A DNA stretch of 64,000 nt from Dehalococcoidia bacterium (GTDB taxonomy: Bacteria; Chloroflexota; Dehalococcoidia; Bin125), in assembly GCA_963555985.3 (NCBI GenBank), contig OY820591.1, positions 320,001 through 384,000 on the forward strand, in the 5' to 3' direction. Shown one piece after another: positions 2,039 to 51,240 of the stretch (positions are counted from its first letter, which is position 1; each line of letters begins with the position of its first letter). The position numbers and the translations under genes are program-made. Below the pieces are notes generated by a model. It worked only from the letters and a program-made list of their open reading frames with translations. It was not told where the DNA came from and searched no databases.

Positions 2039-3826
2039 TCAGTCCAGATCGGTCACGCTCGCCCCGTTGCGCCCCGCCACCGAGTGCTGCGGCCGCACCT
2101 GCGCCACCCAAGCCATCCCTTCCTCGCCGCCCGGCACGCGCGCTCCGTTGCCGCTCGCATTCGCCTCGCTCACGACTGGTATGAACGCCGGCTCGTCAAA
2201 CGTCTGGGCAGGTCCGTAATGGCGATGGTCGACGGGATCCGGCTCGTCGTGCTCTCCGGTGCGGAGCCGTTTCTCGCGCAAGGTTAGGACGGCGACCAGC
2301 GAGATCATGCCGACGCCCACCGAGATCCAGAAGTTGCTCGTGATCGCGACGGCCAGCGCTTCGGGCAGCGTGACGAGAATCTCGATGAATCCTGATTCCC
2401 CGATCTCAGCTAGGAGTCCGGCTCTCGCTTCCTCGTTCAGCAGTTGCGTCGGGTCGGCGTGAGCGGCAAGGTCGGCCGGCAATCGGGAAGCGAGTTCGCT
2501 CGCCAGCCGCCCCGTGACGAGTGCGCCAACCAGCGTCACACCAATGATCCCGCCGATCTCCTGGAAAAACTGGGTCGCCCCGGAAATCGTGCCCAGCATG
2601 GCCTGCGGGAGCGCGTTCTGCGCTGCCGTCATCAGCGACGGGTAGAGCAGCCCCAGTCCGGTACCGAAGATCACCAGCCGCCAGACTACGTCCACCGCCC
2701 CGGATTCCGTGCTCAGCTGGGTCATTAACCAGGAGCCAATCACGATCACGAACGCGGCGATGATCGCCAGGATCTTGTAACGGCCGGTGCGCGACATTAC
2801 CTGGCCGGCGATCGAGGCCATGAACACCATCGAGATAATCTCGGCGCTCAAGAGCAGGCCCGAGGCAGTCGGCGTGTAGCCCAGCACGCCCTGCATGAAG
2901 TAGGCGAGGAAGAACGAGACGCCGAACAGTCCGCCGCCGACCACGGCCATCACCAGCGCTGCCACTCGGAAGGTGTGATTGCGGAACAGCGCGCCGGGCA
3001 AGATTGGCTCCTTCGCGGTTCGCTCTGCCGCGATGAAGGCGATCACGCCCACGCCCGAGACGCCGAACAGCGCCAGGGTCTTGATGTCGAGCCAGGCAGT
3101 CCCGGTCGAGACCAGCGCCAGGGCCAGCATCGCCGGCATCAACATCAGCAGCATCGCGCCGATCCCCAGCCAGTCGATTGTGACTTTGCGCGGCGGCGGC
3201 CGCAGCCAGGGCATGATGAAGGCGATCGAGGCGAACGCCAACACTGCCAGGGGCAGAATTGACCAGAACACCCAGCGCCAGCTCAGCGCGTCAACGATCA
3301 GTCCCCCGAGCAGCGGCCCGATCAACCCGCCGATCCCGAATACGGCCGCGAAGATGCCCATGTACTTGGCGCGTTCGGATGGCGGAAACAGATCGCCGGA
3401 GATCGAGAACGAGTTGCCCATCAGGATCCCGCCGCCGATGCCTTGCAAGGCGCGGAAGCCGATCAGCATCTCCATCGAGGTGGCGAAACCGGCTAAGGCG
3501 GTGGCTCCGGCAAAGATCACCAGGCCGATCAGCAGGAACGGTTTGCGTCCGTACGAATCAGATAAGCGCCCGGCGATCGCGACGGCCGGCATGGAGGTCG
3601 CCATGAAGGCCGACTCCATGAACGCGATCAGATCGAAGCGGCCCAGATCTGCGGCCAGCACCGGCGTCGCCGTGGCGACGATCGAGTGCTGCACCGCAGA
3701 GAGGAACATCGCGACGACGGCGCTGCCAAGAATCAGCATCTTGGTGCGATGCGGCAGTGCGAAGCCGACGGTCGCGGCAGTCGGGGTGAATTCCAGCGCT
3801 GGCGCGTCCGCTGTGGAATGACTCAT
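2039..3826 (-). CDS. MFS transporter, DHA2 (EmrB/QacA-like 14-TM) family
   Basis: GRLSDSYGRK motif A, FRALQGIGGG, many hydrophobic helices; about 70-aa hydrophilic C-terminal tail. Confidence 0.85.
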   Translation of the reverse strand: MSHSTADAPALEFTPTAATVGFALPHRTKMLILGSAVVAMFLSAVQHSIVATATPVLAADLGRFDLIAFMESAFMATSMPAVAIAGRLSDSYGRKPFLLIGLVIFAGATALAGFATSMEMLIGFRALQGIGGGILMGNSFSISGDLFPPSERAKYMGIFAAVFGIGGLIGPLLGGLIVDALSWRWVFWSILPLAVLAFASIAFIMPWLRPPPRKVTIDWLGIGAMLLMLMPAMLALALVSTGTAWLDIKTLALFGVSGVGVIAFIAAERTAKEPILPGALFRNHTFRVAALVMAVVGGGLFGVSFFLAYFMQGVLGYTPTASGLLLSAEIISMVFMASIAGQVMSRTGRYKILAIIAAFVIVIGSWLMTQLSTESGAVDVVWRLVIFGTGLGLLYPSLMTAAQNALPQAMLGTISGATQFFQEIGGIIGVTLVGALVTGRLASELASRLPADLAAHADPTQLLNEEARAGLLAEIGESGFIEILVTLPEALAVAITSNFWISVGVGMISLVAVLTLREKRLRTGEHDEPDPVDHRHYGPAQTFDEPAFIPVVSEANASGNGARVPGGEEGMAWVAQVRPQHSVAGRNGASVTDLD

Positions 3827-3984
3827 GGGCGCTTCTCGTGCGTGTCCACACTAACGGCAGGACTTGCCGAAGCGCTGTGAGATACGTAGCAGAGAGGCGA
3901 TTTGGTTCCGGCGAGTTCGAGTATTGCGCCGCTCAACCGCTGGCCTCAGCCGACGGTCCATCCGGCGGTGTGAGCGAGTCGAGC

Positions 3985-4120
3985 ATGGCATTGCTATTCA
4001 CCGCGGGCGCGCGGTGGCGACGGACGCGCTCGATCGGATTGCGCCGGGAGCCGCCGTCGGAGCTGGCTGCCCGACGCTGGTCGACCCGATCTGCATCCGT
4101 GAGATGGTCGCGTACGCCGC
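3985..4120 (+). pseudogene. collapsed remnant of a YtcJ-like amidohydrolase (N-terminus fused to C-terminus)
   Basis: MALLFT..TDALDRIAPGAAV resembles MELLFTGGRVLTMDALDRIASGVAV (9909); PTLVDPICIREMV resembles PTLVDPTFIREIV (about 13210); upstream GAGTCGA shared. Confidence 0.7.
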
Positions 4121-4141
4121 TTGGAGCCGCCCGGGCGAGTC

Positions 4142-4435
4142 TTAGCCGTCGTAGCCCTGCACCGCTAACACGCTGGATCGCACGGCCCGGTGGCGAAGCT
4201 CATCAAGCGTCGTGTACTCGGCCGAGCTGAGGAACTCGCTGGCCCCATTCGCGCTCTCGAACTGCATGATCACGAGTCGTTGCGGTCTCCAGTCACCCTC
4301 CATGGCCTCCGGATTGCCGCCGCGCACGAGGAACGTACCGCCGTGGGCCGCCAGTGCGTCGGCAATCTTCGCTGCGAACTCCGAGTACGCTTCTTCGTCC
4401 AACGTCTCGGTGTCAATCACGACGTAACTGCTCAT
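4142..4435 (-). CDS. DUF1330 domain protein
   Basis: HGGTFLVRGG..EGDW.P.RLVIMQF.S..S.EY pattern. Confidence 0.85.
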   Translation of the reverse strand: MSSYVVIDTETLDEEAYSEFAAKIADALAAHGGTFLVRGGNPEAMEGDWRPQRLVIMQFESANGASEFLSSAEYTTLDELRHRAVRSSVLAVQGYDG

Positions 4436-4510
4436 CTCAGCAAACCCTTTCTTTGGCAACCGCGCGTTTGGCGCGCAGTTTTCGGCGTGTGGGTCGAGCT
4501 CCGGTCTCGT

Positions 4511-6247
4511 TCATGAACGAAAACCTTCGATCTCGACCGTGACGATGTCGATACCATAATACTTCCGGTGTCTCACCGCCGAGGCGTAGAAGCGCAACAG
4601 GCGGAACGAGATATCGCCGACATCAGGTTCCTCGGCCTGGTCGCTCAAATAGGCAATGCGGTCTTCAATGTTCTCCTCGGAGAACAGCGCTAGGAACTCT
4701 AACTCGACTGAGCCGCTGCCCGGGCGGGCGATCAGCACCAGGCGGGGCGGCTGGTCGGATTCATAATCGTCGCGCAGATGCAGCATCGCGGAAAGGGTTT
4801 CTTCGCCTGCCGCGTGCAGTTGGTCGATCGATGCTTGATTCCAGCGCAGATCGGCGCCGAGTTTGCGCAGGAACGCCTCAATGTCGGGCAAGGCTGAGAG
4901 GTCCAACGCAGTCTCCAGGCGCCGGGAGCGTGAGCCGGTCAGCTCGAGCACCAGCGTCAGCAGAATCGCGGCGAATACGCCGAATACGACGCCGTTGCCC
5001 AGGGTCGCTCCCCAGGTGCCGCCGATGATGTCGGCCAGGATGTTCTGGTTCTGCAGGCCGACTGTGATCGCGAGCGAAACGCCAACAATGAAGGCTCGTT
5101 GCCGGTTGAGTCCCTCGCGCAGGACAGTGCGCATACCTTCGACGAAGAGCAGCCCCATGATGACCATCAGCAACGCGCCGCTGACCGGTCGCGGCATCGT
5201 GAGCAGTATGGCCACGATCTTGGGCAGCAACGCGACCACGATCAGGATCGCGCCGATGACAATGCCGACCCGCCGGGCGGCGACTCCGGTGAACTGGAAC
5301 AACGAGATGGTTGACGGCAGGTAGGCGATGGTGGGCAGGATGCCGGCGATTCCCGACAGCAGGAGCGCGATTCCGCCGACGTTCAAGGTGCGCTGGACGC
5401 CGCGAAAGTCGATGCTGCGCGGTTCGCGCCGGGAGGCCTGCTGGATCGCGGCGCCTTCGCTGCTGGATCTGATCGCGACCACGGCGCTGACGACCAGAAA
5501 GACGAGCAGTAACGCCCAGAAGTCTTCGTCCAACACCGAACCGAAGCCGGGCCAGCCGGAGACCTCGGGGAGATCGAACCAGGGTGCGTCGAGCGCCCGT
5601 TGGATGTCATATACGCCAAGCGGCACGGCGATCGCGCAGCCCGCTACCAAAGCGATCGGCAGGGCCCAGAGGCTCCAGAGGCCAGTTCCGCGCAACATCA
5701 GCAGGGCGGTGATAGCCAGAGTCGCCAATCCCACTCCGGGGCCGGCCAGGTCGCTCACGCCGGCAGGCACGTCGGTGAACCGTTCAATTGCGATCGGCAT
5801 GGCCAGGACTGCGATGATCATGAATGCGACGCCGGAGACGACGGGTGTGATCAGGCGGCGCATCTGCGCCAGTCGAGCCGCTACTGCGAATTGCACGAAC
5901 GATGAGGCGATCACAAGGCTCGACATCATCGCCAGACCACCTTGTTCCACAGCGAGCACACAGGCGGCGAGAAACGGGACTCCCGATCCCATCAGGAGCG
6001 TGTGGCCCGGTCCCAAGCGGCCAATCTTCGATGCGTGCAGCGCCGTGGTCAGGCCGGCAACGATCAGGGCGCCAACAATGGCCCAGGTCACATAGCTGCC
6101 ATCGTCGCCAATCGCGGCAGAAAAGAGCACCACCCAAGTGACCACGTTCGAGACGATCAGGACCGCGCCCTGGAACGCGACATTGAGCGTCAACGGCGGC
6201 GGGACGGTCTCTTCGGGTTCGTAACGGATGTGGTCGTTCGCGGCCAT
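4511..6247 (-). CDS. NCS2 (xanthine/uracil permease) family transporter with C-terminal soluble domain
   Basis: IRYEPEE.P N-terminus, ITPVVSG, TGVAARRVG, PKI...MPRPVSG; about 140-aa soluble tail. Confidence 0.8.
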   Translation of the reverse strand: MAANDHIRYEPEETVPPPLTLNVAFQGAVLIVSNVVTWVVLFSAAIGDDGSYVTWAIVGALIVAGLTTALHASKIGRLGPGHTLLMGSGVPFLAACVLAVEQGGLAMMSSLVIASSFVQFAVAARLAQMRRLITPVVSGVAFMIIAVLAMPIAIERFTDVPAGVSDLAGPGVGLATLAITALLMLRGTGLWSLWALPIALVAGCAIAVPLGVYDIQRALDAPWFDLPEVSGWPGFGSVLDEDFWALLLVFLVVSAVVAIRSSSEGAAIQQASRREPRSIDFRGVQRTLNVGGIALLLSGIAGILPTIAYLPSTISLFQFTGVAARRVGIVIGAILIVVALLPKIVAILLTMPRPVSGALLMVIMGLLFVEGMRTVLREGLNRQRAFIVGVSLAITVGLQNQNILADIIGGTWGATLGNGVVFGVFAAILLTLVLELTGSRSRRLETALDLSALPDIEAFLRKLGADLRWNQASIDQLHAAGEETLSAMLHLRDDYESDQPPRLVLIARPGSGSVELEFLALFSEENIEDRIAYLSDQAEEPDVGDISFRLLRFYASAVRHRKYYGIDIVTVEIEGFRS

Positions 6248-6336
6248 CTTCGCCGGCCTCGTTACCGCTCGGCGCCCTGATCCATCGGTACGCCCGCCAC
6301 AGGCTACGGCCTGGTGCAGCCGGTTCCGAGGCTGGG

Positions 6337-7431
6337 TCAATCGCGAGGTTTCGGTTCGGCGTGTGAGTCGGCCGGGTCCACTGTGTCGGGCAGGAATTGC
6401 CGGTACCAGCGACGCATGGCGTGCACCGGGCCGTCGTCGCGGCAGAGCACGGGACGAGCGCGGTAGACCTTGTTCTCCCAGATCTCGATGTCTTGTTGCC
6501 ACTGGGACACCCAGCCGCCGATCACGTACGAGACCAACAGTCTGGGCGCATGTCGATCAGCGAACCAGTGGAAGTGGACTCTCTGTTCCAGCGGCCCGAC
6601 CGGGAGAAGGGTCTGATACATCGCAATCTCGCCCACTTTGGGGATCGAGAAGCGAAAGATGATCACGCCGCCCGGTCCCCAGAACGACACCCGCGCATGT
6701 ACTTTGACTTGATCGATTCGGCGACCAAACAAGTTGAGCACCGCATCATCGAGTAGATGCATGGCCCAGGGACGCTCGTCATCGAGCATCCAATCGATTG
6801 AGTGTTCGACCTGGATTCCGCGTATGGGGATCGGTGTCCAGGGAATCAGGAACTGACCGTGCAGCGGCTGAAAGTGAGCGGAGTCGGCCACATTCTCGGC
6901 GAACTCGATGATGTGCATCCCTACGCGGCCGCCATCGTGGTGACCGCGATAGACGAAACGGCCGTCGTCCACTTCCTCAATCCGGGGGACATCGTAGGGA
7001 GGCGGGAGATCGTCGCCGTAGGCCGAGCGGTCGTGACGGTGATAGGCGAAGATCTGCCCGTGGACTTCTTGTACGGGAAACGGCCTGGTCAGGACGCCCG
7101 TGGGCGGGTGCTCGCTGTAGGGGATGTGCCGGACGCGACCATCGTTGTCGAATTGCCAGAGGTGGAAGGGGCACTCGATGCAGTCGCCGCGAACGCGCCC
7201 CAGCGCGAGGTTGGTTCCGAGATGCGGGCAGAAGGCGTCCATCAGATGTACGCGGCCGCTGTCCTGTTCGCGCCAGAGGACGAACTGACCGCCGAGGCAC
7301 TCGAGGTAGCGAGTCTGGCCGCGACGCAGCGATGCCGAGGCTGCCAGTCGATACCAGCCCTCGGGGTAGGGGTGGGGGTAGCTCGCCACTCGCGGCGCAT
7401 CGGAGACGCGCGGGGCGCGGCGGCGAATCAT
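6337..7431 (-). CDS. Rieske [2Fe-2S] oxygenase, Neverland (cholesterol 7-desaturase)/KshA-like, copy 1
   Basis: PYPEGWY, CPHLG..CIECPFH Rieske motif, ENVADSAHFQPLH Fe site, DIEIWENK..DGPV..MRRWY C-terminus. Confidence 0.8.
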   Translation of the reverse strand: MIRRRAPRVSDAPRVASYPHPYPEGWYRLAASASLRRGQTRYLECLGGQFVLWREQDSGRVHLMDAFCPHLGTNLALGRVRGDCIECPFHLWQFDNDGRVRHIPYSEHPPTGVLTRPFPVQEVHGQIFAYHRHDRSAYGDDLPPPYDVPRIEEVDDGRFVYRGHHDGGRVGMHIIEFAENVADSAHFQPLHGQFLIPWTPIPIRGIQVEHSIDWMLDDERPWAMHLLDDAVLNLFGRRIDQVKVHARVSFWGPGGVIIFRFSIPKVGEIAMYQTLLPVGPLEQRVHFHWFADRHAPRLLVSYVIGGWVSQWQQDIEIWENKVYRARPVLCRDDGPVHAMRRWYRQFLPDTVDPADSHAEPKPRD

Positions 7432-7543: not shown

Positions 7544-8563
7544 CTAGTCCCCCCGGCAGAACGCCGCCACGTCTCGCGCGGTCGCCAGCGCCAGATCGGT
7601 GCACGGTAGGACCATGTTGTCGCCGCCGTGGATCGTGCCCATCACCTGCCGGCAGCGCGCCGACTGACCCGCGCGCAGCAGCAGACGATAGAACTCGATC
7701 CCCTCGTCGCGCAGCGGGTCGCACTCGTTGACGCTGATTACGGTTGTGGGGAATCCCTGGACATGCTCCTCGTTGGCGAACAGCGGCCAGGCCTCGGGAT
7801 CCTGCGCCTCGAACGCATCCATGCCATAGCCCATTCTGCCAAAGTTGCTGTGCGAATCGAGCCAGACTTCGTTGTTCTCGATCGACGAGGGCAGGTCATC
7901 GCGCGGCCTGCTCCCGGCGATGTCGGGGCACATGGCGTAGAGCCCGTTGACCAGCCCCGCATCGCCCTCGCGGGTCAACCGCAGACCAAGCGCGAGCGTG
8001 AGATTGCCGCCCCCGCTCTCGCCCGCGACGAGGATCCGGCTCGCGTCGATGCCGAACTCGTCCGCCTGCGAGATCAACCAGCGCAGTCCGGACACGCAGT
8101 CGTTCAACCCCGCTGGATATGGCGCAATCTCCGGCGCCGACGATGGGATCACGCAGTTGCGGAAGTCGACCATCGCCACGGCCACGCCCTGGTTCGCGAT
8201 CATCCGCCCCCAGGCTTGGTAGCCCAGGTCGAAGGCCGATGTGACCGCCATGCCGCCGCCGTGGATGTGGTACACGCAGGCCAGCGGAGCGTCGGACTTA
8301 GGCCGCATCAGTGAGACCTGAATCGTGTTGCCGTCCGGTTCCGAGACGAACGTCTCGGTGGTGATCGTCAAGCCCTCGGACGGTGCGACAGCCTCCGCCT
8401 CTTCCTCCGTGAACAGCGTCGTCGCGTGCAGGCCCTCAAGCACCTCCGGCGCATTCATCGCCGCAACTAGCTCTTCTCGCGAGTCGAAGTTCGGCAGCGG
8501 AAATGCCGACAGCCCGCCAAACATCTCCTTGATTCGCGGGTCGATTCGGGGGTCCTCAGTCAT
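7544..8563 (-). CDS. HSL-family esterase/lipase (Abhydrolase_3)
   Basis: HGGG, GESGGG, ECDPLRDEG, catalytic H; the upstream ATG at 8605 lies in the MITE terminus, so 8563 is preferred. Confidence 0.85.
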   Translation of the reverse strand: MTEDPRIDPRIKEMFGGLSAFPLPNFDSREELVAAMNAPEVLEGLHATTLFTEEEAEAVAPSEGLTITTETFVSEPDGNTIQVSLMRPKSDAPLACVYHIHGGGMAVTSAFDLGYQAWGRMIANQGVAVAMVDFRNCVIPSSAPEIAPYPAGLNDCVSGLRWLISQADEFGIDASRILVAGESGGGNLTLALGLRLTREGDAGLVNGLYAMCPDIAGSRPRDDLPSSIENNEVWLDSHSNFGRMGYGMDAFEAQDPEAWPLFANEEHVQGFPTTVISVNECDPLRDEGIEFYRLLLRAGQSARCRQVMGTIHGGDNMVLPCTDLALATARDVAAFCRGD

Positions 8564-8599
8564 CCGGCTCACGAGTCGCTCCTGCCTTGATCCTGGCTC

Positions 8600-8988
8600 G
8601 GACATGTTCAGACTGCGCGAAGTGCGTCGGGGCTGTTTGGCGGGAGAATTTCGGAGGGATTGAGCGGATCTCCTGGCGAGCGCTGAGGATCGTGCGTTTG
8701 AGGGTCTGGATTTGTCCAGATTTGTCCAGATCTGTCTGGATTCGTCTGGATTGATCTCGATTCGGGCGGATTTTTTCCAGGCGAATCCGGGCTTGTCCAG
8801 CGCCGTCCGGGTTTGGAGCGAGTCGTTTGTGGGACACAGCGGTCTCCGATTGGATTCGTGCGCGTATATGTTCTGAGCATACCCGGTTTCGGCTCGGTGG
8901 AGGAGGGCGGGGCAGGGAGCGCCGAGGCTCAGTCTCGAGACCAGCGCGCGTGCGGGCCGACCGCGCTCGTGGTTGTGTGAACAGGCCC
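8600..8988. mobile_element. ~388-bp MITE-like element, copy 1
   Basis: Near-identical direct repeat of 28324-28710; ends GGACATGTTCA...TGAACAGGCCC; no transposase. Confidence 0.75.
8704..8763. repeat. 10-bp tandem repeat array (GTCYRGATYY x ~6)
   Basis: gtctggattt gtccagattt gtccagatct gtctggattc gtctggattg atctcgattc. Confidence 0.85.
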
Positions 8989-9777: not shown

Positions 9778-9908
9778 CTGGGTCTCCTGTCTCGCTGCCG
9801 ATCCCTTCAGAGGGTATGACTGGGGCTTCGAGCCGATCCATACGGCCGCGTAGATTCGTTAGCCTCGCTTCGCACGGAACATCGCGCTCTGACACGAGGG
9901 AGTCGAAG

Positions 9909-11516
9909 ATGGAGTTGCTCTTCACCGGCGGGCGTGTGCTGACGATGGATGCGCTCGATCGCATCGCTTCGGGTGTCGCGGTGCGCGATGGCCGGATCGT
10001 CGCGGTCGGAGAGAGCGACGAGGTACGCAACGCGGTCAGTCCCGACGCGACCCACGTCGAATTGCAGGGACGCGCCCTGATCCCAGGCTTCTGCGACCCG
10101 CACAATCACTTCTCGATGACGACGTTTGAGCCGCGCTCGGTCGATTGCCGCATTCCGCCGCTGGCAGGGAAGCCGGCTGTGCTTGATGCGATCGCGGTTG
10201 CCGCGGCTGGAAGTCCGGCCGGGCAGTGGGTCTGGGGTCTCGGCTACAGCGCGCGACATGCGAACGGCGGTTGGCTGACCCGCTCCGAACTGGACGACGC
10301 GGCTCCGAACAATCCAGTTTGCGTGATGGACTTCTCCTATCACGCCAGTTACGCCAACTCCGCGGCGATGGCGATTGCGGGGATCAATTTCGAGACTCCC
10401 GATCCGCGCGGCGGCCAGATTCTGCGAGACGAGAGCGGCGAGGCGACGGGGATGCTCTACGAGCGGGCGTCCGATCTCGTCCACCACGCTTCGATGCGGG
10501 CGCACATCGACACGCTCGGACCTGAGGTCGTAGCTGATCTCGTTGAGCAGAACGCGCTGCGTCATCTGTCGCATGGGGTGACTAGCGTGGGCGACGCGGT
10601 GGTCATGCCGGAAAGCGCGGAGATGTACCGCCTCGCCGACGAGCGCGGCAAGCTGCCGATCGTAATTCATCAGATGCGGGGCGGGAACGGCTTCTTCGCC
10701 GCGCCCGAGGCGGCGGCAGGCGGGGCGTTCTTGCAGGACGACGTGTCGGATCGGCTGCGGGGCGGGATCGTGAAGCTGTTCATGGATCCGGTCTATCCCT
10801 CGAACGCGCTGCGCAAGTGCCACGCGGACGGCACGTTTGAGGATGTGGGCGAGCCGTACTACAACCAAGATGAGGTGGATCAGCTCGTGCTGAACGCCGC
10901 TTCGCACGGCTTGCAGACGGCGATTCACTGTCTCGGCAATCGCGCCATTGAGCAGGCGCTCAACACCTACGAACGTGTCCAGCGCGAGATTGCGCGCAGC
11001 GACGCCCGCTACCGGATCGAGCACTTCTTCTTTGCGGATCCGGGTCAGATGGAGCGGGCAGCGTCGCTTGGGGTGATCATCTCGCACCAGCCCGCCTTCC
11101 TCTATTCGGTCGGGCAGGGGTTCGTCGATTTCATCGCGGATGCGGGCCTCACGATCCCGCCGCTGCCCTACCGCTCGTTCCTCGACGCGGGCGTGACGGT
11201 GGCGTCGGGTTCGGATTTCCCCTGCGCGCCGGTCGAACCGCTGCTTGGTCTCTACGGGTTGACCGCGCGTCGCTCGCGCGACGGCGATCTGATCGCAGAG
11301 GAGGAAACGCTTTCGCCGCTCGAAGCGCTGCGCACACAGACGATCAACTCGGCGGTTGCGATGTTCCGCGATCACGAGGTCGGCTCAATCGAAGTCGGCA
11401 AACGCGCCGATTTGGTCGTCCTGAGCCACGACCCGTCGTTGGTGGACGCCGAGTACATCCGCGAGATCGTGGTTCAGCAGACGTACGTTGACGGTGAGCT
11501 GAAGTACGCGGTCTAA
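9909..11516 (+). CDS. YtcJ-like metal-dependent amidohydrolase (Amidohydro_3), paralog 1
   Basis: PGFCDPHNH, AIHCLGNRA, RIEH, GSDFP, GSIEVGKRADLVVL. Confidence 0.88.
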   Translation: MELLFTGGRVLTMDALDRIASGVAVRDGRIVAVGESDEVRNAVSPDATHVELQGRALIPGFCDPHNHFSMTTFEPRSVDCRIPPLAGKPAVLDAIAVAAAGSPAGQWVWGLGYSARHANGGWLTRSELDDAAPNNPVCVMDFSYHASYANSAAMAIAGINFETPDPRGGQILRDESGEATGMLYERASDLVHHASMRAHIDTLGPEVVADLVEQNALRHLSHGVTSVGDAVVMPESAEMYRLADERGKLPIVIHQMRGGNGFFAAPEAAAGGAFLQDDVSDRLRGGIVKLFMDPVYPSNALRKCHADGTFEDVGEPYYNQDEVDQLVLNAASHGLQTAIHCLGNRAIEQALNTYERVQREIARSDARYRIEHFFFADPGQMERAASLGVIISHQPAFLYSVGQGFVDFIADAGLTIPPLPYRSFLDAGVTVASGSDFPCAPVEPLLGLYGLTARRSRDGDLIAEEETLSPLEALRTQTINSAVAMFRDHEVGSIEVGKRADLVVLSHDPSLVDAEYIREIVVQQTYVDGELKYAV

Positions 11517-11553
11517 CAGGCTGAATGAACAGTCTGCGCGTTAGCGCTCATTG

Positions 11554-11602
11554 CTCTCCCCCCGCATTGCGGGGGGAGATGTCCCGTAGGGACGGAGGAG
11601 GG
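11554..11602. repeat. REP-like double-hairpin repeat (family A)
   Basis: CTCTCCCCCCGC-ATT-GCGGGGGGAG followed by GTCCC-GTA-GGGAC. Confidence 0.75.
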
Positions 11603-11677
11603 CGACCAGAACCAGCGCAACGAAATCGCTAGCCTCTGCGCGCCACTGATAAATCCTGCGCAACCGAGGAGTTGATC

Positions 11678-13294
11678 ATGGAACTGCTATTCACCGGCGG
11701 ACGAGTACTGACGATCGATCCGCTCGATCGCATTGTCTCCGGCGTTGCCGTGCGCGACGGCCGGATCGTCGCGGTCGGCGACAGCGATGAGGTGCGCAAC
11801 GCGGTTGGGCCTGACGCGACCCACGTCGATCTGCGCGGCCGTGCGCTCGTGCCCGGTTTCTGCGACCCGCACAACCACTTCTCGATGACCACCTTCGAGC
11901 CGCGCTCGGTCGACTGCCGCACGCCGCCGCTGGCAGGACCGCGGCAGGTACTTGACGCCATCGCGGCGGCGGCGGCCGGCAGTCCGGACGGGCAGTGGAT
12001 TTGGGGTTTGGGTTTCGCCGCCCGCAACTTTGAGCCTTCCGGCGATGATGTGCTGCACCGCCGCGAGTTGGACGAGGCCGCGCCGAACAATCCGGTCTGC
12101 GTGATGGACTCTTCCTATCACGCCTGCTACGCCAACTCGGCGGCGATGGCGCTGGTCGGCATCAACCGCGATACGCCGAATCCGCCCGGCGGCGAGATTC
12201 GCAAGGACGACCACGGCGAGCCGAACGGGATTCTGTGGGAGCGGGCGATGGACCCGGTGCATCATGCCTCGATGCGCTCGTATATCGACACGTTCGGCCC
12301 CGAGGTCGTGGCCGGCTTGGTCGAGCAGAATGCGCGCCGCCACCTCTCGCACGGAATCACCAGCGTCGGCGATGCGTTGGTGATGCCCGAAAGCGCGGAG
12401 ATCTATCGGCTGACCGATGAACGCGGCCAGCTGCCGATCGTGATCCACCAGATGCGAGGCGGGCCGGGCTTCTTCGCTGCGCCCGAGGACGCTGCCGGCG
12501 GCGCGTTCATGGAAGACGATGTTTCCGACCGGCTGCGCGGCGGGATCGTCAAGATTTTTATGGACCCGGTCTGGCCGAGTCCGGCGCTGGAAATCTGCCA
12601 TGCCGATGGGACGACCAATCCGGTGGGCGAGCCGTACTACGGGCAGGAAGAGGTTGATCACCTCGTGCTCGACGCCGCCTCGCACGGGTTGCAGGTGGCG
12701 ATTCACTGCATCGGGAACCGCGCCATCGACCAGGCGTTGAATGCGTTTGAGCGTGCTCAGCGGGAGTATCCGCGCGATGATCCGCGTTACCGGATTGAGC
12801 ACTTCAGCTTCGGTCTGGCGGAGCAGATGGAGCGGGCGCGCTCGCTCGGCGTGATCGTTTCGCACCAGCCGCCCTTCCTGAACGCGATTGGCGAGTACTT
12901 CGAGATGCGGATCGCCGAAACGGGACTGGACGCGATCCCGATCCCCTATCGCTCAATGCTGGACGCGGGCGTCTTCGTCGCCTCCGGCTCCGACTTTCCC
13001 TGCGCTCCGGTCGAACCTCTGCTCGGCCTCTATGGATTGGTCGGGCGGACGGCGCGCGACGGTCATCAGGTCGCGCCGGACGAAACGATCGCTCCGCTCG
13101 AAGCCATCCGCACCTACACGCTCAACTCCGCTACGGCCATGTTCCGCGAGCACGAGGTCGGCTCGATCGAGGTCGGCAAGCGCGCCGATCTGGTCGTGAT
13201 GAGTCACGATCCGACGCTGGTGGATCCGACCTTTATCCGCGAGATCGTGGTGCAGCAGACGTATATCGATGGAGACTTGGTGTATTCGATGTAG
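11678..13294 (+). CDS. YtcJ-like amidohydrolase, paralog 2 (tandem duplicate)
   Basis: Same motifs; colinear and highly similar to 9909-11516; GAGGAG RBS. Confidence 0.88.
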   Translation: MELLFTGGRVLTIDPLDRIVSGVAVRDGRIVAVGDSDEVRNAVGPDATHVDLRGRALVPGFCDPHNHFSMTTFEPRSVDCRTPPLAGPRQVLDAIAAAAAGSPDGQWIWGLGFAARNFEPSGDDVLHRRELDEAAPNNPVCVMDSSYHACYANSAAMALVGINRDTPNPPGGEIRKDDHGEPNGILWERAMDPVHHASMRSYIDTFGPEVVAGLVEQNARRHLSHGITSVGDALVMPESAEIYRLTDERGQLPIVIHQMRGGPGFFAAPEDAAGGAFMEDDVSDRLRGGIVKIFMDPVWPSPALEICHADGTTNPVGEPYYGQEEVDHLVLDAASHGLQVAIHCIGNRAIDQALNAFERAQREYPRDDPRYRIEHFSFGLAEQMERARSLGVIVSHQPPFLNAIGEYFEMRIAETGLDAIPIPYRSMLDAGVFVASGSDFPCAPVEPLLGLYGLVGRTARDGHQVAPDETIAPLEAIRTYTLNSATAMFREHEVGSIEVGKRADLVVMSHDPTLVDPTFIREIVVQQTYIDGDLVYSM

Positions 13295-13308
13295 GGGGCT
13301 GACATGCG

Positions 13309-14418
13309 CTAATCGCGAGTCCAGGCTTGGCCGTCCGTGTCCGCTTTGGGCAGGAATTGTTGATACCAGCGGCGCATCTCGTAGACCGGGCCGTCGTCTC
13401 GGCAGAGCTTCGGCTGAGGGATGTGGACCTTGTTCTCCCAGATGTCGACATCTTGAGGCAACTGCGAGGCCCAGCTTCCGATCACGTACCAGACCAACCA
13501 GCGAGGCAGTCTGCGGTCGGCGAACCAGCGGTAGTCCACCTGCTGTTCGAGCGGGCTGATGGGGAGGAAAGTCTTGTACATGGCGATTTCGCCTCGGCCA
13601 GGGAGGTCGAAGCGAAAGAGCAGCAGGCTGCCGGGGCCGAAGTAGGAGACGCGCACGCGGGCTTCGGTGCGCATGGACAGGCGGCCAAAGATTCGCAAGA
13701 GCACGTAGTCATCGAAGTGCATCAGCCAGGGATGGTCCTCGTCCAGCGTCCACTTGGCCGTGTGCACGATCTCAATGCCCGGGATCGGCACTTGCGTCCA
13801 GGGCACTCGAAACTGCCCGTGCAGCGCCTGGAAGTGGGCCGTGTCCACCGCGTTGTCGGCGATCTCGATGATGTGCATCCGCACGCGGCCGACATTGCGA
13901 TGACCGCGCATGAGGAAACGTTCCTCGTCTACTTCGGGGATGCGCGGGACATCATACGGAGGCGGTGAAGCCTCATCGTCCGATGAACCGTCGCTGCGGT
14001 GGTAGAGGAACAACTGACCGTGGACTTCTTGGAGCGGATACGTCCGTGCCAGGACGCGGTTCGGAGGCAGGTCGCTGTAGGGAATATGCGCGACGCGGCC
14101 ATCTCCGCTGAATTGCCAGAGGTGGAACGGGCACTCGAGACAGTCGCCGCGAACACGTCCGCGAGCGAGGTTGGCGCCCAGATGCGGGCAGAAGGCGTCC
14201 AGCAGATGGATTTCGCCGCTGTCCCGTTCACGCCAGAGGACAAAGCGCTTGCCCAGGCATTCGAGCTCACGAATCTCGCCGGGGCGAATGGAGTCGGTTG
14301 ACGCCAGTCGATACCAGCCCGTGGGGTAGGGATGGGGGTAGCCCTCCGCCTGTTGCGTTTCCCAGCGCGCTTCCAGAAGCGGGGAGTTGCCGTCGCGTCG
14401 GCGCCTGAGACTCAGCAT
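13309..14418 (-). CDS. Rieske oxygenase, Neverland/KshA-like, copy 2
   Basis: YPHPYPTGWY, CPHLGANL..CLECPFH, DNAVDTAHFQALH, QDVDIWENK..DGPVYEMRRWYQQF; start overlaps the SMT stop. Confidence 0.8.
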   Translation of the reverse strand: MLSLRRRRDGNSPLLEARWETQQAEGYPHPYPTGWYRLASTDSIRPGEIRELECLGKRFVLWRERDSGEIHLLDAFCPHLGANLARGRVRGDCLECPFHLWQFSGDGRVAHIPYSDLPPNRVLARTYPLQEVHGQLFLYHRSDGSSDDEASPPPYDVPRIPEVDEERFLMRGHRNVGRVRMHIIEIADNAVDTAHFQALHGQFRVPWTQVPIPGIEIVHTAKWTLDEDHPWLMHFDDYVLLRIFGRLSMRTEARVRVSYFGPGSLLLFRFDLPGRGEIAMYKTFLPISPLEQQVDYRWFADRRLPRWLVWYVIGSWASQLPQDVDIWENKVHIPQPKLCRDDGPVYEMRRWYQQFLPKADTDGQAWTRD

Positions 14419-15473
14419 GGCGTCTCTTCGTCAGCGGGGGGCTTTCGAGCGTGGATGAGGAAGCTGGGGGTGAAGATTTCGAGTTGGCCGGCTTCGACGA
14501 GGGCGTCGGCGGCGATGTTGAGGAAGCTTGCGGTTTCGCTAGTTCCCGCCGGGGCGATGCGCAGCGTTTCGAGGAAATTCGTGACGGCCGCGGTGAAGCG
14601 GCGACCGACGGGCGTCCGCGCCCATGAGCTCAGGGAGAAGTCGCGTCCCTGCAGCGCCATGTACCAGGGCGTGTCGGGGTTGCCGTTGGCGGCCTGCTGG
14701 TCGATGGCCTGGATGATCTCGAAGCCGGCCTGTCGAACGACCTCCACATGCTGTTCGGTGGTGGGCAGGTCGGGCACGGCGTTGGTGGTCTCGATGCGGT
14801 TGCGGATGTCCTGATGCTGGGGATTGTCGGGGTCGAAGCGATCGGTGAGGCACCAATCGACGATCGCCATTTCGGCGCCGGGCTTGAGTAGGCGGTAGAG
14901 CTCGCGGAAGAGGAGCAGGTTGTTGGGGGCGTGGCAGACGGCCTCGAAGGAGTAGATGGCGTCGAAGGTCTCGTCCTCGAGGGGGACGTCCATGAAGTTG
15001 GCGTAGAGGAAGTGGCAGGTTTGTTGCAGTCCGGCCTTGTCGACCATGTGTCGGCCGCGCTCGATCTGGTAGGTGTTGTAGTTGATGCCGGTGATGTTGG
15101 CGCCGGTCGCTTTAGCGATCGTGACCAGCGGCCCGCCGACGCCGCAGCCGAGATCGGCGACGTCCATACCCGGCTTGAGCCGCAGGATCTCTCCGATTTC
15201 TTCGTCGTGCCGTCGCTGGGAGGCGGCCAGGTTCTCTCCGGGCCGGCGGGGCGAGAAGTGGAAGGTCGAGCCCCAGCCGAATTCGTAGAACCGCGTGACG
15301 GCGTCGTAGAAGCGGCTGACCAGCCTGGGCTGTTCGGCGATTCTCGCGGCGTCTTCCTGCGATTCGCTCAGTTCCTTGATCTGCTGGTAGTCGTGCAGCG
15401 CCTCGCGGATTCCGCTGTTCGGGTTGGCTTCACCGCTCGGTGGGGTGCGGGTCTCCGGTTGGACTTTGGCCAT
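14412..15473 (-). CDS. smt: sterol C24-methyltransferase (SMT/ERG6-like)
   Basis: SMT region I YEFGWGSTFHF, II DLGCGVGGP, III YSFEAVCHAP, IV VDWC; C-terminal LVEAGQLEIFTPSFLIHARKP. Confidence 0.88.
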   Translation of the reverse strand: MAKVQPETRTPPSGEANPNSGIREALHDYQQIKELSESQEDAARIAEQPRLVSRFYDAVTRFYEFGWGSTFHFSPRRPGENLAASQRRHDEEIGEILRLKPGMDVADLGCGVGGPLVTIAKATGANITGINYNTYQIERGRHMVDKAGLQQTCHFLYANFMDVPLEDETFDAIYSFEAVCHAPNNLLLFRELYRLLKPGAEMAIVDWCLTDRFDPDNPQHQDIRNRIETTNAVPDLPTTEQHVEVVRQAGFEIIQAIDQQAANGNPDTPWYMALQGRDFSLSSWARTPVGRRFTAAVTNFLETLRIAPAGTSETASFLNIAADALVEAGQLEIFTPSFLIHARKPPADEETPC

Positions 15474-15620
15474 GGCCGCCTCTCGCGAGTCTTTGCGTTC
15501 GAGCCATGATAGCGTCCTGAATATTCACCTCAAATTCATTACAAGAGATTCAGAACTGCAAGCAAGACACGATACCGATCCTCTACCGCTCAATGATCGG
15601 TACAGGTTGACTGTCAGCTT

Positions 15621-21818: not shown

Positions 21819-22925
21819 ATGAAGATTACCGATATCACTTGCACCCCGCTGACGATCGGCAAGAGCCTGCTCAGGGTCGTGACCAACGCCGGGGTCGAGG
21901 GCTGGGCTGAGGTACCGGGCGGCAACTACAACACGAGCTCGAAGGCGGCTGTCTTCCAGGCGTACCTCGAGACCGACATCAAGCGAGCCCTGTTGGGTGA
22001 AGACCCGCGCCTGATCGACCGTCACTGGGAGACGCTGGCGCTGGGTCGGGGCGAACGCGCCTACAAGCTCCCCGGCTGGGTGGTTGGAGTGGTGGACGTG
22101 GCGCTTTGGGATCTGCTGGGTAAGGAGACCGGCCTGCCGGTGCATACGCTGATGGGCGGCGCGCGCCGCACCACCATTCCGCTGTACTGGAGCACCGGCT
22201 CGGGCTGGCGGATGCAGCCGGAAGAGATGCTGGCGCTAGTCGAGGCGGGCAAGGAACAGGGCTACGAGTCCTTCAAGATTCGGATGGACTGGCGCGGCTG
22301 GCGACAGGACATTGATCCGGAGAAGGACTTCCGGATCTTCAAGTTGGTGCGCGAGTACCTAGACGAAGGCCAGTACCTCGGCTTTGACGCCAACAACGGC
22401 TACTCGGTCTCGACGGCGATCCAGCAGGGACGGCGTTTCGAGGAGCTAGGTATCGACCACTTCGAGGAGCCGATCCCGCACTACGATCTGCTCGGGCTGA
22501 AGCAGGTGTCCGACGCTCTGGACGTGGCGGTCTCGGCCGGGGAGCAGGACGCTTACCGCTGGTGGTTCGAGCACCTGGTGCTGCTCGGCAACGTGGACAT
22601 CCTCCAGCCGGACATTCTCAACGCGGGCGGCCCCAGCGAGGTCAAGCGCATCTTCGAGATGGCGACGGTGCTGAACAAGCCGGTGATGCCGCATAGTCCG
22701 CAGGCTGGGATCAACTCGATGGCGTCGTTGCACGTCTACGCCACCGTGCAGAACGCTACCCGTCCGCATGAGTACTCGGAGGAGTTCTCTGGCCCGATTG
22801 ATGACGTGGCTGACCTGTACGGCGAGTCGGTGATTCCGAAAGACGGCTGCATCCAGCTCAGCGACAAGCCGGGCTACGGGATCGAGTTGAACGAGGCGGC
22901 GGTGCAGCGGTTGACGGTGCGCTAG
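21819..22925 (+). CDS. mandelate racemase/muconate lactonizing enzyme (enolase superfamily)
   Basis: DVALWDLLGK, FKIR, DANNGY, FEEP, AGEQ, DILQPD, MPH. Confidence 0.88.
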   Translation: MKITDITCTPLTIGKSLLRVVTNAGVEGWAEVPGGNYNTSSKAAVFQAYLETDIKRALLGEDPRLIDRHWETLALGRGERAYKLPGWVVGVVDVALWDLLGKETGLPVHTLMGGARRTTIPLYWSTGSGWRMQPEEMLALVEAGKEQGYESFKIRMDWRGWRQDIDPEKDFRIFKLVREYLDEGQYLGFDANNGYSVSTAIQQGRRFEELGIDHFEEPIPHYDLLGLKQVSDALDVAVSAGEQDAYRWWFEHLVLLGNVDILQPDILNAGGPSEVKRIFEMATVLNKPVMPHSPQAGINSMASLHVYATVQNATRPHEYSEEFSGPIDDVADLYGESVIPKDGCIQLSDKPGYGIELNEAAVQRLTVR

Positions 22926-23347
22926 GTCGTCTCGTATTCCCACGGGTTGATGATCTCGATGCCTAGTCCCTCGAAGTCGCTCACATTGCGAGTCACGACC
23001 GTCATCTCGTGGGCCATCGCCGTGCCAGCGATCAACGCGTCCGCGATACTGATCGTTCGTCCGCTGCGGCTTGCCCGCGCCCGCAGTACCGCCGCCAATT
23101 CGGCCGCCAATCTGTCCAGTGAAACGATGCGATTCTCGAATGCTGAGAGGAACTGTACGTGTGTGGCATACAGTCGCTCACGGCGGCGACCGTCGGGAAG
23201 CCGTTGCAGTCCGAACTCCAATTCATGCAAGACGACCGCCGAGATCCATTGGTCGGGATGCTCCAGGATGAACGCGGCCACGCGAGGGTTGGGGTCATCG
23301 TTCGCGAGCTCTGAGACGACATTGGTGTCCAGTAGATAGCCACTCAC
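22922..23347 (-). CDS. vapC: VapC PIN-domain toxin
   Basis: YLLDTNVVSEL, DALIAGTA, VVTRNVSDF, INPW. Confidence 0.9.
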   Translation of the reverse strand: MSGYLLDTNVVSELANDDPNPRVAAFILEHPDQWISAVVLHELEFGLQRLPDGRRRERLYATHVQFLSAFENRIVSLDRLAAELAAVLRARASRSGRTISIADALIAGTAMAHEMTVVTRNVSDFEGLGIEIINPWEYETT

Positions 23348-23709
23348 TAGTTGTCCGGATCCGCCGCGTCAAACGCGGCCCAATCCTCTTCTGTCCAGTC
23401 GGCATAGGGAATTGGACGGTTCGACCCTCGTTCGTGCGGAATGTCGTCATAGATCCCGCGCGGCATCATCTGAAGCAAGTACTGACCTATGGACATTTGC
23501 GGCGGCTCGCCCGAGGGCGAGACGTCCTCCGACACTTGGGGCGACGGCTCACGCTCGAGCCAGACCTCCTCTGGCACGACGACATAGCGCTTGCGCCTGC
23601 CGATCCGTTGCGGGCCTTCGCTCTCGGCCAGGCGCAGAATCTCGGACAGCTTGGCCTTCGCTTCGGCGATGGTCCAGACGGGACGTGCTTCATGTTCTCG
23701 AAGGCTCAA
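23347..23709 (-). CDS. Phd/YefM-family antitoxin
   Basis: WTIAEAKAKLSEILRLA..EGPQRI; overlaps the toxin start by 1 nt. Confidence 0.8.
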   Translation of the reverse strand: MSLREHEARPVWTIAEAKAKLSEILRLAESEGPQRIGRRKRYVVVPEEVWLEREPSPQVSEDVSPSGEPPQMSIGQYLLQMMPRGIYDDIPHERGSNRPIPYADWTEEDWAAFDAADPDN

Positions 23710-30115: not shown

Positions 30116-30277
30116 GGACTCACTCCTCTACTCAAGCCAAGAGTCTAAGCGCATCGCTGCCGTGCTCGGCGACAACGCCGGGAACTGTGCACAGATTGCT
30201 CCCCGCGCGCATCCACGCCGCCGGTGCTGCCTGAGTCGAGCGCCTCTCGTATCGTGAACAGGTTCCTGGAGGCATCC

Positions 30278-31918: not shown

Positions 31919-31921
31919 GCG

Positions 31922-32314
31922 CTACTCGGTCTGGTAGAGCGGCGCGGACGGCGCGCCGGCAGCCGCCGCTTCAGTGACCGCCAGCAGCTCGCGGATGCGC
32001 GCAGCTTCCCGCTCACGCTCCTCCGCGTTGAGCGAATAGGCGTGTGCGGCGATGCCGCCCATGCCGTGCGATCCCCAGGCGATCACTAGGTCTTCGATTT
32101 CATGCAGGACCGGAGCCGGAACCGCCTTGCGCGGCAGGCGCAGTTCCGCAATGCGAGTCCATGCCGCCGCGAGCGCCGGCGCGCTCACCGGCGATTCAGA
32201 GATATCGCCGACCGCATCCCGTAGCCGCTGGAGCGTCGGTTCAAGCTGTTGCGATGTGTACGTCGCGTCGCCGTGCTCGCGGAACATCTCCGGCAGATCG
32301 AAGTCGTCCGGCAT
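31922..32314 (-). CDS. hypothetical protein, probably co-transcribed with the P450
   Basis: 130-aa ORF starting 7 nt after the P450 stop; fills the gap between convergent genes. Confidence 0.55.
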   Translation of the reverse strand: MPDDFDLPEMFREHGDATYTSQQLEPTLQRLRDAVGDISESPVSAPALAAAWTRIAELRLPRKAVPAPVLHEIEDLVIAWGSHGMGGIAAHAYSLNAEEREREAARIRELLAVTEAAAAGAPSAPLYQTE

Positions 32315-32321
32315 CTCTGCG

Positions 32322-33581: not shown

Positions 33582-33721
33582 GATCGACTCCCCCGCCCTG
33601 GTCACTGATCGCCGGTGACCCCATTCTATGGGTCGTCCCAGTGTCGACGAGCCAGGCGCACGCGACCGCGACGATTGTGATCCTCGATAATGCCGCCAAC
33701 TTCACCTGAGGGGAGCGGATC

Positions 33722-39998: not shown

Positions 39999-40040
39999 CG
40001 TTCGCTCCTTCGCTCAGGCAAGGCAGAGGCTAGTCCGCGA

Positions 40041-40341
40041 GGGGTTGTTCGGCAACGAAAAAAAATCGTTGGCGTTCAGGTGTTCAGGGACAATTTTTTT
40101 CTGGGGGCCTTTGCGTGCGAATCTCCGGTAAAACACTGGAGATCGTGTGTTCGGTCGTTCAGCTTTGTTCAGGTTGGGGTGTTCGATTGCGTTCGATTTC
40201 GTTCGGCTAGGTTCGCGGGTGTTTTTCGGTGTGCTGTCAGGTTGTCCGGGGTTCGTCCGGATGGCGGCGATGGTCATGTTGGCTGCTTGCGGATGCGGGT
40301 TTGCGGGTTGGGTGGGATCGATTATATACGTATGGATGTGC
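40041..40341 (-). repeat. dispersed ~270-300-bp element, copy 1 (homologous to 47425-47700)
   Basis: Shared GGCGTTCAGGTGTTCAGGGACAATTTTTTT(T)CTGGGG..CGAATCTCCGGTAAAACACT core; GTTCG repeats every 10 bp at 40181-40220; TATAAT at 40321-40326 on the minus strand. Confidence 0.8.
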
Positions 40342-40472
40342 TGTTAGAGTGGGGGGGGTTGGCTGAGAGTGTCGGAGGCGACAGTCGTCATGGCGGAGAA
40401 GTGGAGGCGCGGCGCATCTTGGCTGAACGCAGTACCGTCGTTCGGAGCCGGACCCGCCTGGGAGCTGACGCC

Positions 40473-41456: not shown

Positions 41457-41501
41457 CTCAGGCGTGTTGGGAGACCACGAGCAGACAATAGGGCCACTCT
41501 C

Positions 41502-49770: not shown

Positions 49771-49861
49771 TCATATAATGCGGCGCCCGTGAACCTGTGC
49801 CAATCAGCGCTTTCGGCTTGGATATGCCGGGCAAGCGCCTGCGATACTCGGACCGGATCGC

Positions 49862-51139: not shown

Positions 51140-51240
51140 GCCGTTCACGCTACCCGTCGATTGGGCGTTTGTCAGCCTACCTATGTTCTTCCCGGCCTGT
51201 CCGGGAAGCTGGCCTGAGTAGACGGAGGCCGAGCGGGAAC

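Follow-up and report, generated by a model that had tools for sequence, protein, structure and literature searches.

The gene pair described here lies in a 64,000-nucleotide stretch of DNA (the window) from an uncultured Dehalococcoidia bacterium of the phylum Chloroflexota (contig OY820591.1, positions 320,001–384,000; G+C content 64%). The minus strand encodes a sterol C24-methyltransferase (SMT) of 353 amino acids (aa) with class I methyltransferase and Sterol_MT_C domains (14412..15473) and, directly downstream, a Rieske [2Fe-2S] non-haem-iron oxygenase of 369 aa from the KshA_C/Neverland-like family, with Rieske and KshA_C domains (13309..14418, minus strand). The two open reading frames share the 7 nucleotides ATGCTGA (14412..14418, minus strand), where the SMT stop overlaps the Rieske start: the SMT gene ends in ACG CCA TGC TGA, and the Rieske ATG, which is backed by Chloroflexota homologues aligning from residue 1, sits within that string. 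This overlap implies co-transcription and probably translational coupling of the two genes. A sequence scan found no terminator-like site between them, and a promoter consensus scan, which returned 2 sites where 0.5 were expected, gave a weak sigma-70-like match (9/12 matches) at 15506..15533 on the minus strand, 5' of the SMT start. The full stretch was contained in four sequencing runs, all of DNA type and from one study, with no RNA run among those listed. The coordinates, strands and overlap given in an earlier note on this DNA proved correct in every checkable detail, and the Pfam domains confirmed its assignment of the proteins to the SMT and KshA_C-type Rieske families. Homology searches at E ≤ 0.001 returned 1308 relatives of the SMT (word-indexed search) and 404 of the Rieske protein (first homology search), numbers that, on sequence comparison, put the gene pair far beyond chance.

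The SMT begins with a class I S-adenosylmethionine methyltransferase domain (Methyltransf_11, 9.3e-19, residues 107–203, along with several other class I methyltransferase models) and ends with Sterol_MT_C (1.2e-21, residues 282–345). The four SMT signature regions noticed earlier were read directly in the protein as YEFGWGSTFHF (Region I), DLGCGVGGP (Region II), FEAVCHAP (Region III) and KPGAEMAIVDWC (Region IV). Its best 120 relatives exhibited 60–81% identity, and the named ones among them were metagenome-assembled genome (MAG) entries from Chloroflexi/Chloroflexota or Gammaproteobacteria, or JGI entries named ‘sterol 24-C-methyltransferase’; rather than being of eukaryote type, as first described, the protein sits within a large bacterial SMT clade. 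No close solved structure was found, the best match being MitM (7e-26). The available sections of a preprint list 25 residues common to all SMTs active in vitro (Brown & Welander 2025 preprint). All 25 were present here and were kept in 23–26 of 26 relatives when mapped by constant motif offsets from the preprint numbering, not by alignment to yeast ERG6 (for example, 84GWGxxFHF91 to 66–73 and 125DxGxGxxGP133 to 107–115); among them are GWGxxFHF of Region I, DxGxGxxGP of Region II and E195 of Region III. Region IV reads VDW in place of YEW, and VDWC had been proposed as a peculiarity that could alter the product. It is instead the norm of the clade (V in 18/26, D in 21/26, W in 26/26 and C in 23/26), and YEW is not a defining feature of SMTs, because G217 is the sole Region IV residue shared by the functional enzymes in the portion of the preprint dealing with them (Brown & Welander 2025 preprint). 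The residue at position 249 (yeast numbering, by offset mapping only) was Asn in 26/26 sequences. G249N mutants are described in the same source as making C28 and C29 sterols and no C30 (Brown & Welander 2025 preprint), and propylation by this SMT to a C30 product therefore looks unlikely from its sequence. Since it belongs to this family, and since bacterial SMTs related to it accept desmosterol and 24-methylenecholesterol for methylation in vitro in the experiments available from Brown et al. 2023 (PMC10070321), its substrate is presumably a sterol.

The Rieske oxygenase matched the Pfam models Rieske (2e-20) and KshA_C (6.5e-25). It has the N-terminal motif YPHPYPTGWY and a C-terminal block, DIWENK...DDGPVYEMRRWYQQF, that aligns to KshA5. 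Alignment to KshA5 of Rhodococcus (4qdc) spanned the full length (residues 7–358; E 1.2e-40, 142.7 bits), which makes the question of the fold moot. The CxH...CxxH ligands (C77/H79/C96/H99) and the His-His-Asp iron site (H195/H200/D323), as aligned to KshA5, were invariant in 32 relatives. Searched exhaustively with HMMER, 1.84 billion representatives yielded 10309 matches at E ≤ 0.001, of which 418 reached E ≤ 1e-30; 20 representatives were looked up for name and source. The named or eukaryote-sourced ones among these 20 were proteins of the protists Gefionella (39–40% identity, 272–289 bits), Leptophrys (39%, 283 bits) and Heterolobosea sp. (34%, 218 bits), a Rhodelphis protein (32%, 173 bits) and a barnacle protein named ‘cholesterol 7-desaturase nvd-like’ (32–33%, 163–166 bits). 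Cholesterol 7-dehydrogenase or 7-desaturase was also the JGI name of 7 among the 120 Rieske homologues listed, and the nearest ESM-Atlas clusters were likewise auto-named cholesterol 7-dehydrogenase/7-desaturase.

In a FastTree phylogeny of 158 sequences, a quick tree with many long branches and no labelled KshA sequence among its rows, the pair-type Rieske proteins fell in a 95-row clade (support 97) together with Gefionella and Leptophrys. It had as its sister group a clade of 41 rows that included the proteins of the barnacle, Rhodelphis and Heterolobosea (support of the join 88), and it stood apart from a clade of ~32% identity and from SdmA. By sequence, the closest named relatives of the Rieske protein are thus protist proteins and a barnacle Neverland-like protein, with KshA only slightly further away. 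It did not group with non-steroid oxygenases, the outcome that the earlier note had held to count against its proposal. Placement in the Neverland subfamily depends on a tree that lacks labelled KshA and on a margin of only 163 versus 143 bits, and the protein was therefore filed in the wider KshA_C/Neverland superfamily. Delta7 chemistry, which had been called possible, stays a conjecture at these scores, KshA being nearly as close. The 4beta-methylsterol monooxygenase and C4-demethylase SdmA was rejected as an identity for the protein: the NCBIfam model scored 46.5 bits against a cut-off of 600 and covered residues 35–204 only, in relatives, genuine SdmA genes encode VanA_C where the paired Rieske has KshA_C, and in the trees SdmA falls at the root, outside all KshA_C sequences. 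A fusion of SMT and Rieske that might serve as a Rosetta stone was sought among 25 long (518–805 aa) representatives of the Rieske family, none of which had a methyltransferase domain; their N-terminal extensions gave no Pfam match. No KshB-type reductase (FNR-like with a plant-type 2Fe-2S domain) was found genome-wide, the sole PF00175/NAD_binding_1 match (26 bits, C1:843503) being far off, and no dedicated reductase was found near the pair. The absence of such a reductase argues against a KshAB degradation system.

To survey the gene neighbourhood, one genome per GTDB species was scanned with the SMT alignment; from the 265 relatives found, the best 80 loci, all from MAGs, were kept and searched by tblastn with the paired Rieske. 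A near full-length Rieske orthologue (43–76% identity) lay on the same strand directly downstream of the SMT in 39/80 loci, and variant arrangements at 4 more (two with one gene between, one with the Rieske upstream, L077, and one broken) brought the total to 43/80. At L025 from Myxococcota (9971–14802) and L026 from Spirochaetaceae (2209–7160) the pair was expanded to four genes in the order SMT, FAD oxidoreductase, Rieske and FA_desaturase-like membrane protein. The broken copy at L069 consists of three pieces (11105–12101), and at L020 only a C-terminal Rieske remnant of 62 residues was found, just upstream of the SMT (9789–9974); the pieces at both loci bear signs of gene decay. One further locus (L080) ends too early for its Rieske partner to be judged. 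Judged from record titles and NCBI taxonomy, pair carriers belong to seven phyla, namely Chloroflexota, Acidobacteriota, Actinomycetota, Gemmatimonadota, Pseudomonadota, Myxococcota and Spirochaetota. The gene families flanking the pair were conserved only within a phylum and differed between phyla, and no third gene beside the pair was conserved across them. The acidobacterial synteny block, for example, comprises gamma-glutamyltranspeptidase, a TonB-dependent receptor and amidohydrolases, and that of Chloroflexota a permease, amidohydrolases, PhyH and MFS; both are lineage-specific.

The two proteins also diverged in step. The SMT tree mirrors the Rieske tree, and the SMT and Rieske distances of 49 pairs correlated with a Mantel r of 0.91, a value not reached in any of 2000 permutations, in part because the hosts share ancestry. 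A reverse scan of JGI metagenomes with the Rieske alignment returned 80 loci, of which about 60 belong to the ~32%-identity clade. A distant SMT (40% identity) lay directly upstream of the Rieske in 6/80 (L110, L112, L113, L114, L116 and L120), and the closest unpaired Rieske relatives (e.g. L097–L103, L108, L109 and L111) had only housekeeping or unrelated genes as neighbours. Among 25 other chromosome-level SMT genomes, a Rieske orthologue was close in 16 and only distant (35% identity) in 1. The pairing that the earlier note had wished to see surveyed thus holds up as a conserved unit; on these sequence data it appears to be ancestral with scattered losses, and the SMT–Rieske unit, with flanks that differ by phylum, appears to move between phyla.

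We then turned to the source of the sterol. The genome comprises 3.33 Mb in 11 contigs (a 3.15-Mb main contig and 10 small ones; 96.4% complete, 7.5% contamination) and encodes one cyclase, which scored 266 bits on the oxidosqualene cyclase (OSC) model, compared with about 700–770 bits for the OSCs of relatives, and resembles squalene-hopene cyclase (SHC); its DVDDTA motif is one that we take to be an SHC signature. Neither squalene epoxidase nor SdmA was found in the genome, and the ERG4/24 family is represented by a low-scoring member only. Two chromosome-level relatives, G004 and G011, carry a sterol island with SdmB, SdmA, ERG24, a CYP51 cytochrome P450 (P450) and a fused squalene epoxidase–OSC of 1115–1255 aa (L087:8834–12181 in G004; L088:8016–11783 in G011). 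A tblastx comparison found no counterpart of this island on the main contig or the 10 small contigs of the present genome. The island is placed differently in G004 and G011, and in neither of them does the pair lie within it. Long open frames (~1130–1480 aa) surrounding the OSC match were seen in many further genomes.

The same question was put to 74 other SMT genomes, in which the OSC was intact in 27, split or partial in 3 and absent in 44. Intact, split and absent OSCs numbered 14/1/27 in pair-bearing genomes and 13/2/17 in pair-less ones. The OSC was absent from 16 of the 25 chromosome-level SMT genomes and split in 1, and the pair-bearing genomes without OSC include 10 chromosome-level records. 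No cyclase match at all was found in six chromosome-level pair-bearing genomes (G018, G039, G050, G058, G066 and G070); G039 has the pair with neither a cyclase nor an ERG4/24 gene. Sponge-type Acidobacteriota form a series in which the pair is kept throughout while the OSC passes from intact (G026) to split into two adjacent pieces (G033, C1:1403043–1405061) to absent (G034, G038, G060 and G070), which suggests that synthesis decayed while tailoring was kept.

These findings point to a conserved two-enzyme unit, distributed across phyla, with a predicted role in sterol tailoring by C24 alkylation and ring oxidation, probably C7 desaturation, which in the present genome likely acts on acquired sterols; judged from sequence comparisons, we put the probability of this reading at about 0.6. 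The SMT would add carbon at C24 of the side chain of a delta24 sterol, and the co-translated Rieske oxygenase would oxidise the ring system of what is presumably the same molecule, most probably by C7–C8 desaturation to yield delta5,7 sterols. Desaturation at this position is suggested by the Neverland-like affinities of the Rieske, by a precedent in Capsaspora and by sponge sterol chemistry. The sterol itself would come from outside, probably from a sponge host, and the absence of a de novo sterol island from the genome fits the remodelling of acquired sterols. The earlier note had proposed that the module remodels acquired sterols rather than degrading them. The first part agrees with the missing island and sits less easily with the occurrence of the pair in OSC-bearing genomes; the second agrees with the lack of a KshB-type reductase.

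Several observations weigh against this reading. The spread over phyla is drawn from MAG bins, which can hold mis-binned contigs. In gammaproteobacteria, a whole SMT clade of 22 members lacks a neighbouring Rieske, and 8/25 chromosome-level SMT genomes gave no Rieske match at E ≤ 1e-40, so the SMT does not need the Rieske. The pair was not enriched in OSC-less genomes (Fisher p 0.63 for the 74 genomes, p 0.10 for the 25 chromosome-level ones) and coexists with an intact OSC in 14 genomes; being found equally with and without OSC, it is best regarded as a general sterol-tailoring unit that is not specific to scavenging. The completeness and contamination of the genome leave some room for an island missed here. 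The full-length KshA5 match of 142.7 bits comes near the 163 bits of the animal Neverland (Nvd) and no labelled KshA stands in the trees, so the Rieske could still hydroxylate C9 or act at another position. Finally, it is names and a single marker, rather than metadata, that point to a sponge habitat.

An unlikely alternative is that the pair acts late in the de novo synthesis of sterols by bacteria, with the Rieske replacing a eukaryotic di-iron desaturase such as ERG3. The lack of an OSC would then reflect a gap in the assembly or a loss in the very recent past, and no host sterol would be involved. Close Chloroflexota relatives do carry the pair, or the SMT, together with the full island of SdmB, SdmA, ERG24, P450 and fused squalene epoxidase–OSC, an intact OSC accompanies the pair in 14 genomes, the present genome is 96.4% complete, and bacteria already use the Rieske protein SdmA in place of eukaryotic ERG25, as the relevant passages of PMC10202945 describe. 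However, 27 pair-bearing genomes lack the OSC, 10 of them at chromosome level, the G033 lineage kept the pair with a split OSC, the island is absent from the 3.15-Mb main contig and the 10 small contigs, and in neither of the two relatives examined does the island include the pair.

That the Rieske acts on the side chain (C24/C25 or C22), either making the olefin for the SMT from saturated host sterols such as cholesterol or processing the SMT product, seems improbable. SMT chemistry requires a delta24 olefin; most mature host sterols have none, and a Rieske so tightly coupled to a side-chain enzyme might supply it; the pair is moreover the only recognisable sterol gene set in G039, and at L025 and L026 it is joined by the FAD oxidoreductase and the FA_desaturase-like gene. 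Direct signs of side-chain chemistry are lacking, and to our knowledge all characterised relatives (Neverland, DAF-36, DES7 and KshA) act on ring B/C, at C7–C8 or C9. The Rieske C7-desaturase described in passages of the Capsaspora study accords with this (PMC4967820).

We consider it highly improbable that the Rieske is a KshA-type 9alpha-hydroxylase of steroid degradation whose adjacency to the SMT is incidental or regulatory. Its KshA_C domain and full-length KshA5 match (E 1.2e-40) would suit such a role, as would a window rich in catabolic-type genes (Baeyer-Villiger-type monooxygenases, esterases and CoA-transferases) and containing a P450 with CYP125-type enzymes among its best solved matches. 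However, the only NAD_binding_1 match that might stand in for a KshB-like reductase (26 bits) lies elsewhere, adjacency to the SMT is kept in seven phyla with co-varying divergence, Neverland-like proteins outscore KshA, and methylating a sterol before degrading it would make no metabolic sense; this weighing was made without a search for KstD or HsaA-D. Botryococcus has SMT-like enzymes that methylate squalene and the genome has its SHC-like cyclase, which together would admit squalene, hopanoids or another olefinic lipid of the cell itself as substrate. This is hard to credit, given the six chromosome-level pair-bearing genomes without any cyclase match, the Sterol_MT_C domain with all 25 functional-SMT residues, and the in vitro activity of related bacterial SMTs on sterols in the assays available from PMC10070321.

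Tailoring of acquired sterols by the pair can be set beside several known systems. The bacterial SMTs in the available parts of two reports (Brown et al. 2023, PMC10070321; Brown & Welander 2025 preprint) share the Methyltransf_11 and Sterol_MT_C architecture, the conserved residues and the kinds of source organism. Those enzymes lie in clusters with OSC, erg and sdmAB homologues, from which de novo synthesis is argued in the same parts of the two reports (PMC10070321; 2025 preprint), whereas the family examined here has a Neverland-like Rieske as its constant partner, and the OSC is missing from over half of the SMT genomes. Neverland, DAF-36 and Tetrahymena DES7 share with the paired Rieske the Rieske and KshA_C domains, the N-terminal motif P-Y-P-x-(G/A)-W-(Y/F), the C-terminal block and full-length likeness (32% identity to the barnacle nvd-like protein, 39% to a protist homologue), and they act on taken-up sterols, as we propose for this protein. 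Unlike them it is bacterial, lacks the N-terminal membrane anchor, is shorter (369 versus ~420–470 aa) and is in an operon with an SMT. KshA/KshB of actinobacterial steroid degradation has the same Pfam domains and metal ligands and gives the 142.7-bit full-length alignment; the paired Rieske differs in that its genome has no KshB-type reductase, its partner is an anabolic methyltransferase and it scores higher against Neverland-like proteins. SdmA/SdmB, the C4-demethylation pair of a Rieske oxygenase and a reductase, likewise involves a bacterial Rieske acting on sterols and is present in relatives, with the VanA_C and KshA_C domains setting the two Rieske proteins apart.

A functional parallel is Capsaspora owczarzaki, which, according to the sections consulted, converts exogenous cholesterol to ergosterol and co-induces an SMT, a Rieske C7-desaturase and a C22-desaturase for the taken-up cholesterol (PMC4967820). 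The same two chemistries, SMT and Rieske C7-desaturation, would thus be applied to acquired sterol; Capsaspora differs in being a eukaryote, in having co-regulated genes without an operon and in its extra P450 C22-desaturase (PMC4967820). In Coxiella burnetii, Stmp1 is, in the passages describing it, a eukaryote-like sterol-modifying enzyme, a sterol reductase acting on host sterol, in a bacterium without sterol synthesis (PMC8787468); it belongs to the ERG4/24 family and is a single gene of an intracellular pathogen. Searches of the literature, which took in no subscription-only papers, found no description of a bacterial SMT–Rieske pairing, in keeping with the earlier note, which had not recognised it as a characterised unit. 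‘Cholesterol 7-desaturase’ was not found together with sponge-symbiont terms, nor were ‘Neverland’ or ‘DAF-36’ in bacterial-sterol papers. The main text of PMC10070321 does not contain ‘Rieske’, ‘Neverland’, ‘desaturase’ or ‘oxygenase’, and its searchable supplements (one scanned PDF being unsearchable) do not contain ‘Rieske’, ‘Neverland’ or ‘7-desaturase’; in the available sections of ‘De novo cholesterol biosynthesis in bacteria’, Rieske is mentioned only for SdmA (PMC10202945). The SMT half belongs to a known bacterial family; within the literature searched, neither its constant partner of Neverland/KshA type nor the frequency with which OSC is missing has been described.

Three indirect points suggest that the carrier is associated with sponges. 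Genus names such as Candidatus Poriferisodalis among the carriers hint at such an association, on which literature on the Candidatus names gave nothing decisive for habitat. SMTs are reported in Aplysina and Ircinia symbionts in the parts available of Brown et al. 2023 (PMC10070321). The genome also encodes a GPP34-P450 fusion of 682 aa, an architecture described as found only in sponge symbionts in the relevant sections of Ferreira et al. 2025 (PMC11706023). In cultured cells of Ircinia muscarum, ~90% of the free sterols are delta5,7, including ergosterol and 7-dehydrositosterol, according to the passages on sterol composition in PMC4210886, and among the 9alpha-hydroxy-5,6-epoxy-7-ene sterols of I. 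echinata is one earlier obtained by radical oxidation of 7-dehydrocholesterol (PMC6267468). These sponge data, like the Capsaspora precedent, are correlations with C7–C8 desaturation and not tests of it.

Alkylated steranes are used as fossils of early animals, a reading that bacterial SMTs already complicate. To this the present data add that the bacterial SMT is usually accompanied by another sterol enzyme, of Neverland/KshA type, that the resulting unit appears to move between phyla and that more than half of the SMT genomes lack a recognisable OSC. Such bacteria would therefore edit the sterols of others rather than make their own, which changes the meaning of a metagenomic SMT match for biomarker work. 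The pair is also a candidate origin for the abundant delta5,7 24-alkyl sterols of some sponges. Animal Neverland enzymes are hard to express, and soluble, anchor-free bacterial relatives could serve biochemical and structural work. In its widest and most speculative form, which we regard as conceivable and rather doubtful, symbionts from seven or more phyla, which for the most part cannot make sterols themselves, have in common a mobile module that turns host delta24 sterols into 24-alkyl delta5,7 sterols; part of the sponge sterol inventory (e.g. that of Ircinia), and hence of the sterane biomarkers, would then be bacterial, and the bacterial Neverland-like enzymes would represent the prokaryotic equivalent of the C7-desaturase of animals and protists, or even its source.

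The window encodes a paralogous KshA_C Rieske of 364 aa (6337..7431, minus strand; 62% identity to the paired Rieske), which falls inside the Chloroflexota subclade of pair-type Rieske proteins in the tree and is possibly a second sterol oxidase. A relative (L016) has a second Rieske copy 3.2 kb downstream of its pair, so the two Rieske genes were probably once at one locus. The paralogue is adjoined by an Abhydrolase_3 gene of esterase/lipase type (7544–8605, minus strand); that this enzyme might free sterols from steryl esters is pure speculation.

A further cluster at 30224–34858 contains a Rieske/Ring_hydroxyl_A protein (30224–31918), a P450 (32322–33605) and, beside the latter, an ERG4/ERG24-family gene (33722–34858; 112 bits, 30% identity to the island ERG24, MaSR1 4quv at 1e-31). 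Judged by its sequence, the ERG4/24 gene could encode a delta24(28) or other sterol reductase, and its low-scoring class recurs in many SMT genomes. The best solved matches of the P450 include reconstructed CYP125 ancestors and CYP142 steroid C26-monooxygenases. Elsewhere in this genome (C1:2688108–2694119; L096:4109–10119), a third, divergent KshA_C Rieske lies with the GPP34-P450 fusion (682 aa) and an MMPL transporter (814 aa) that carries a sterol-sensing/Patched domain. Both the fusion and the transporter recur in the relative G011, where they border the sterol island and a second SMT. Sterols are never mentioned in the accessible parts of the GPP34-P450 paper (PMC11706023); this locus may have a sterol-linked role, and the transporter could equally be a hopanoid exporter.

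Two stretches of the window are low in G+C, 40001–42000 (0.58) and 48001–51148 (0.56) versus 0.64, and are possibly acquired DNA; the second adjoins a DNA methylase–HNH endonuclease gene (49862–51148). A PIN/Phd toxin–antitoxin pair lies at 22922–23709.

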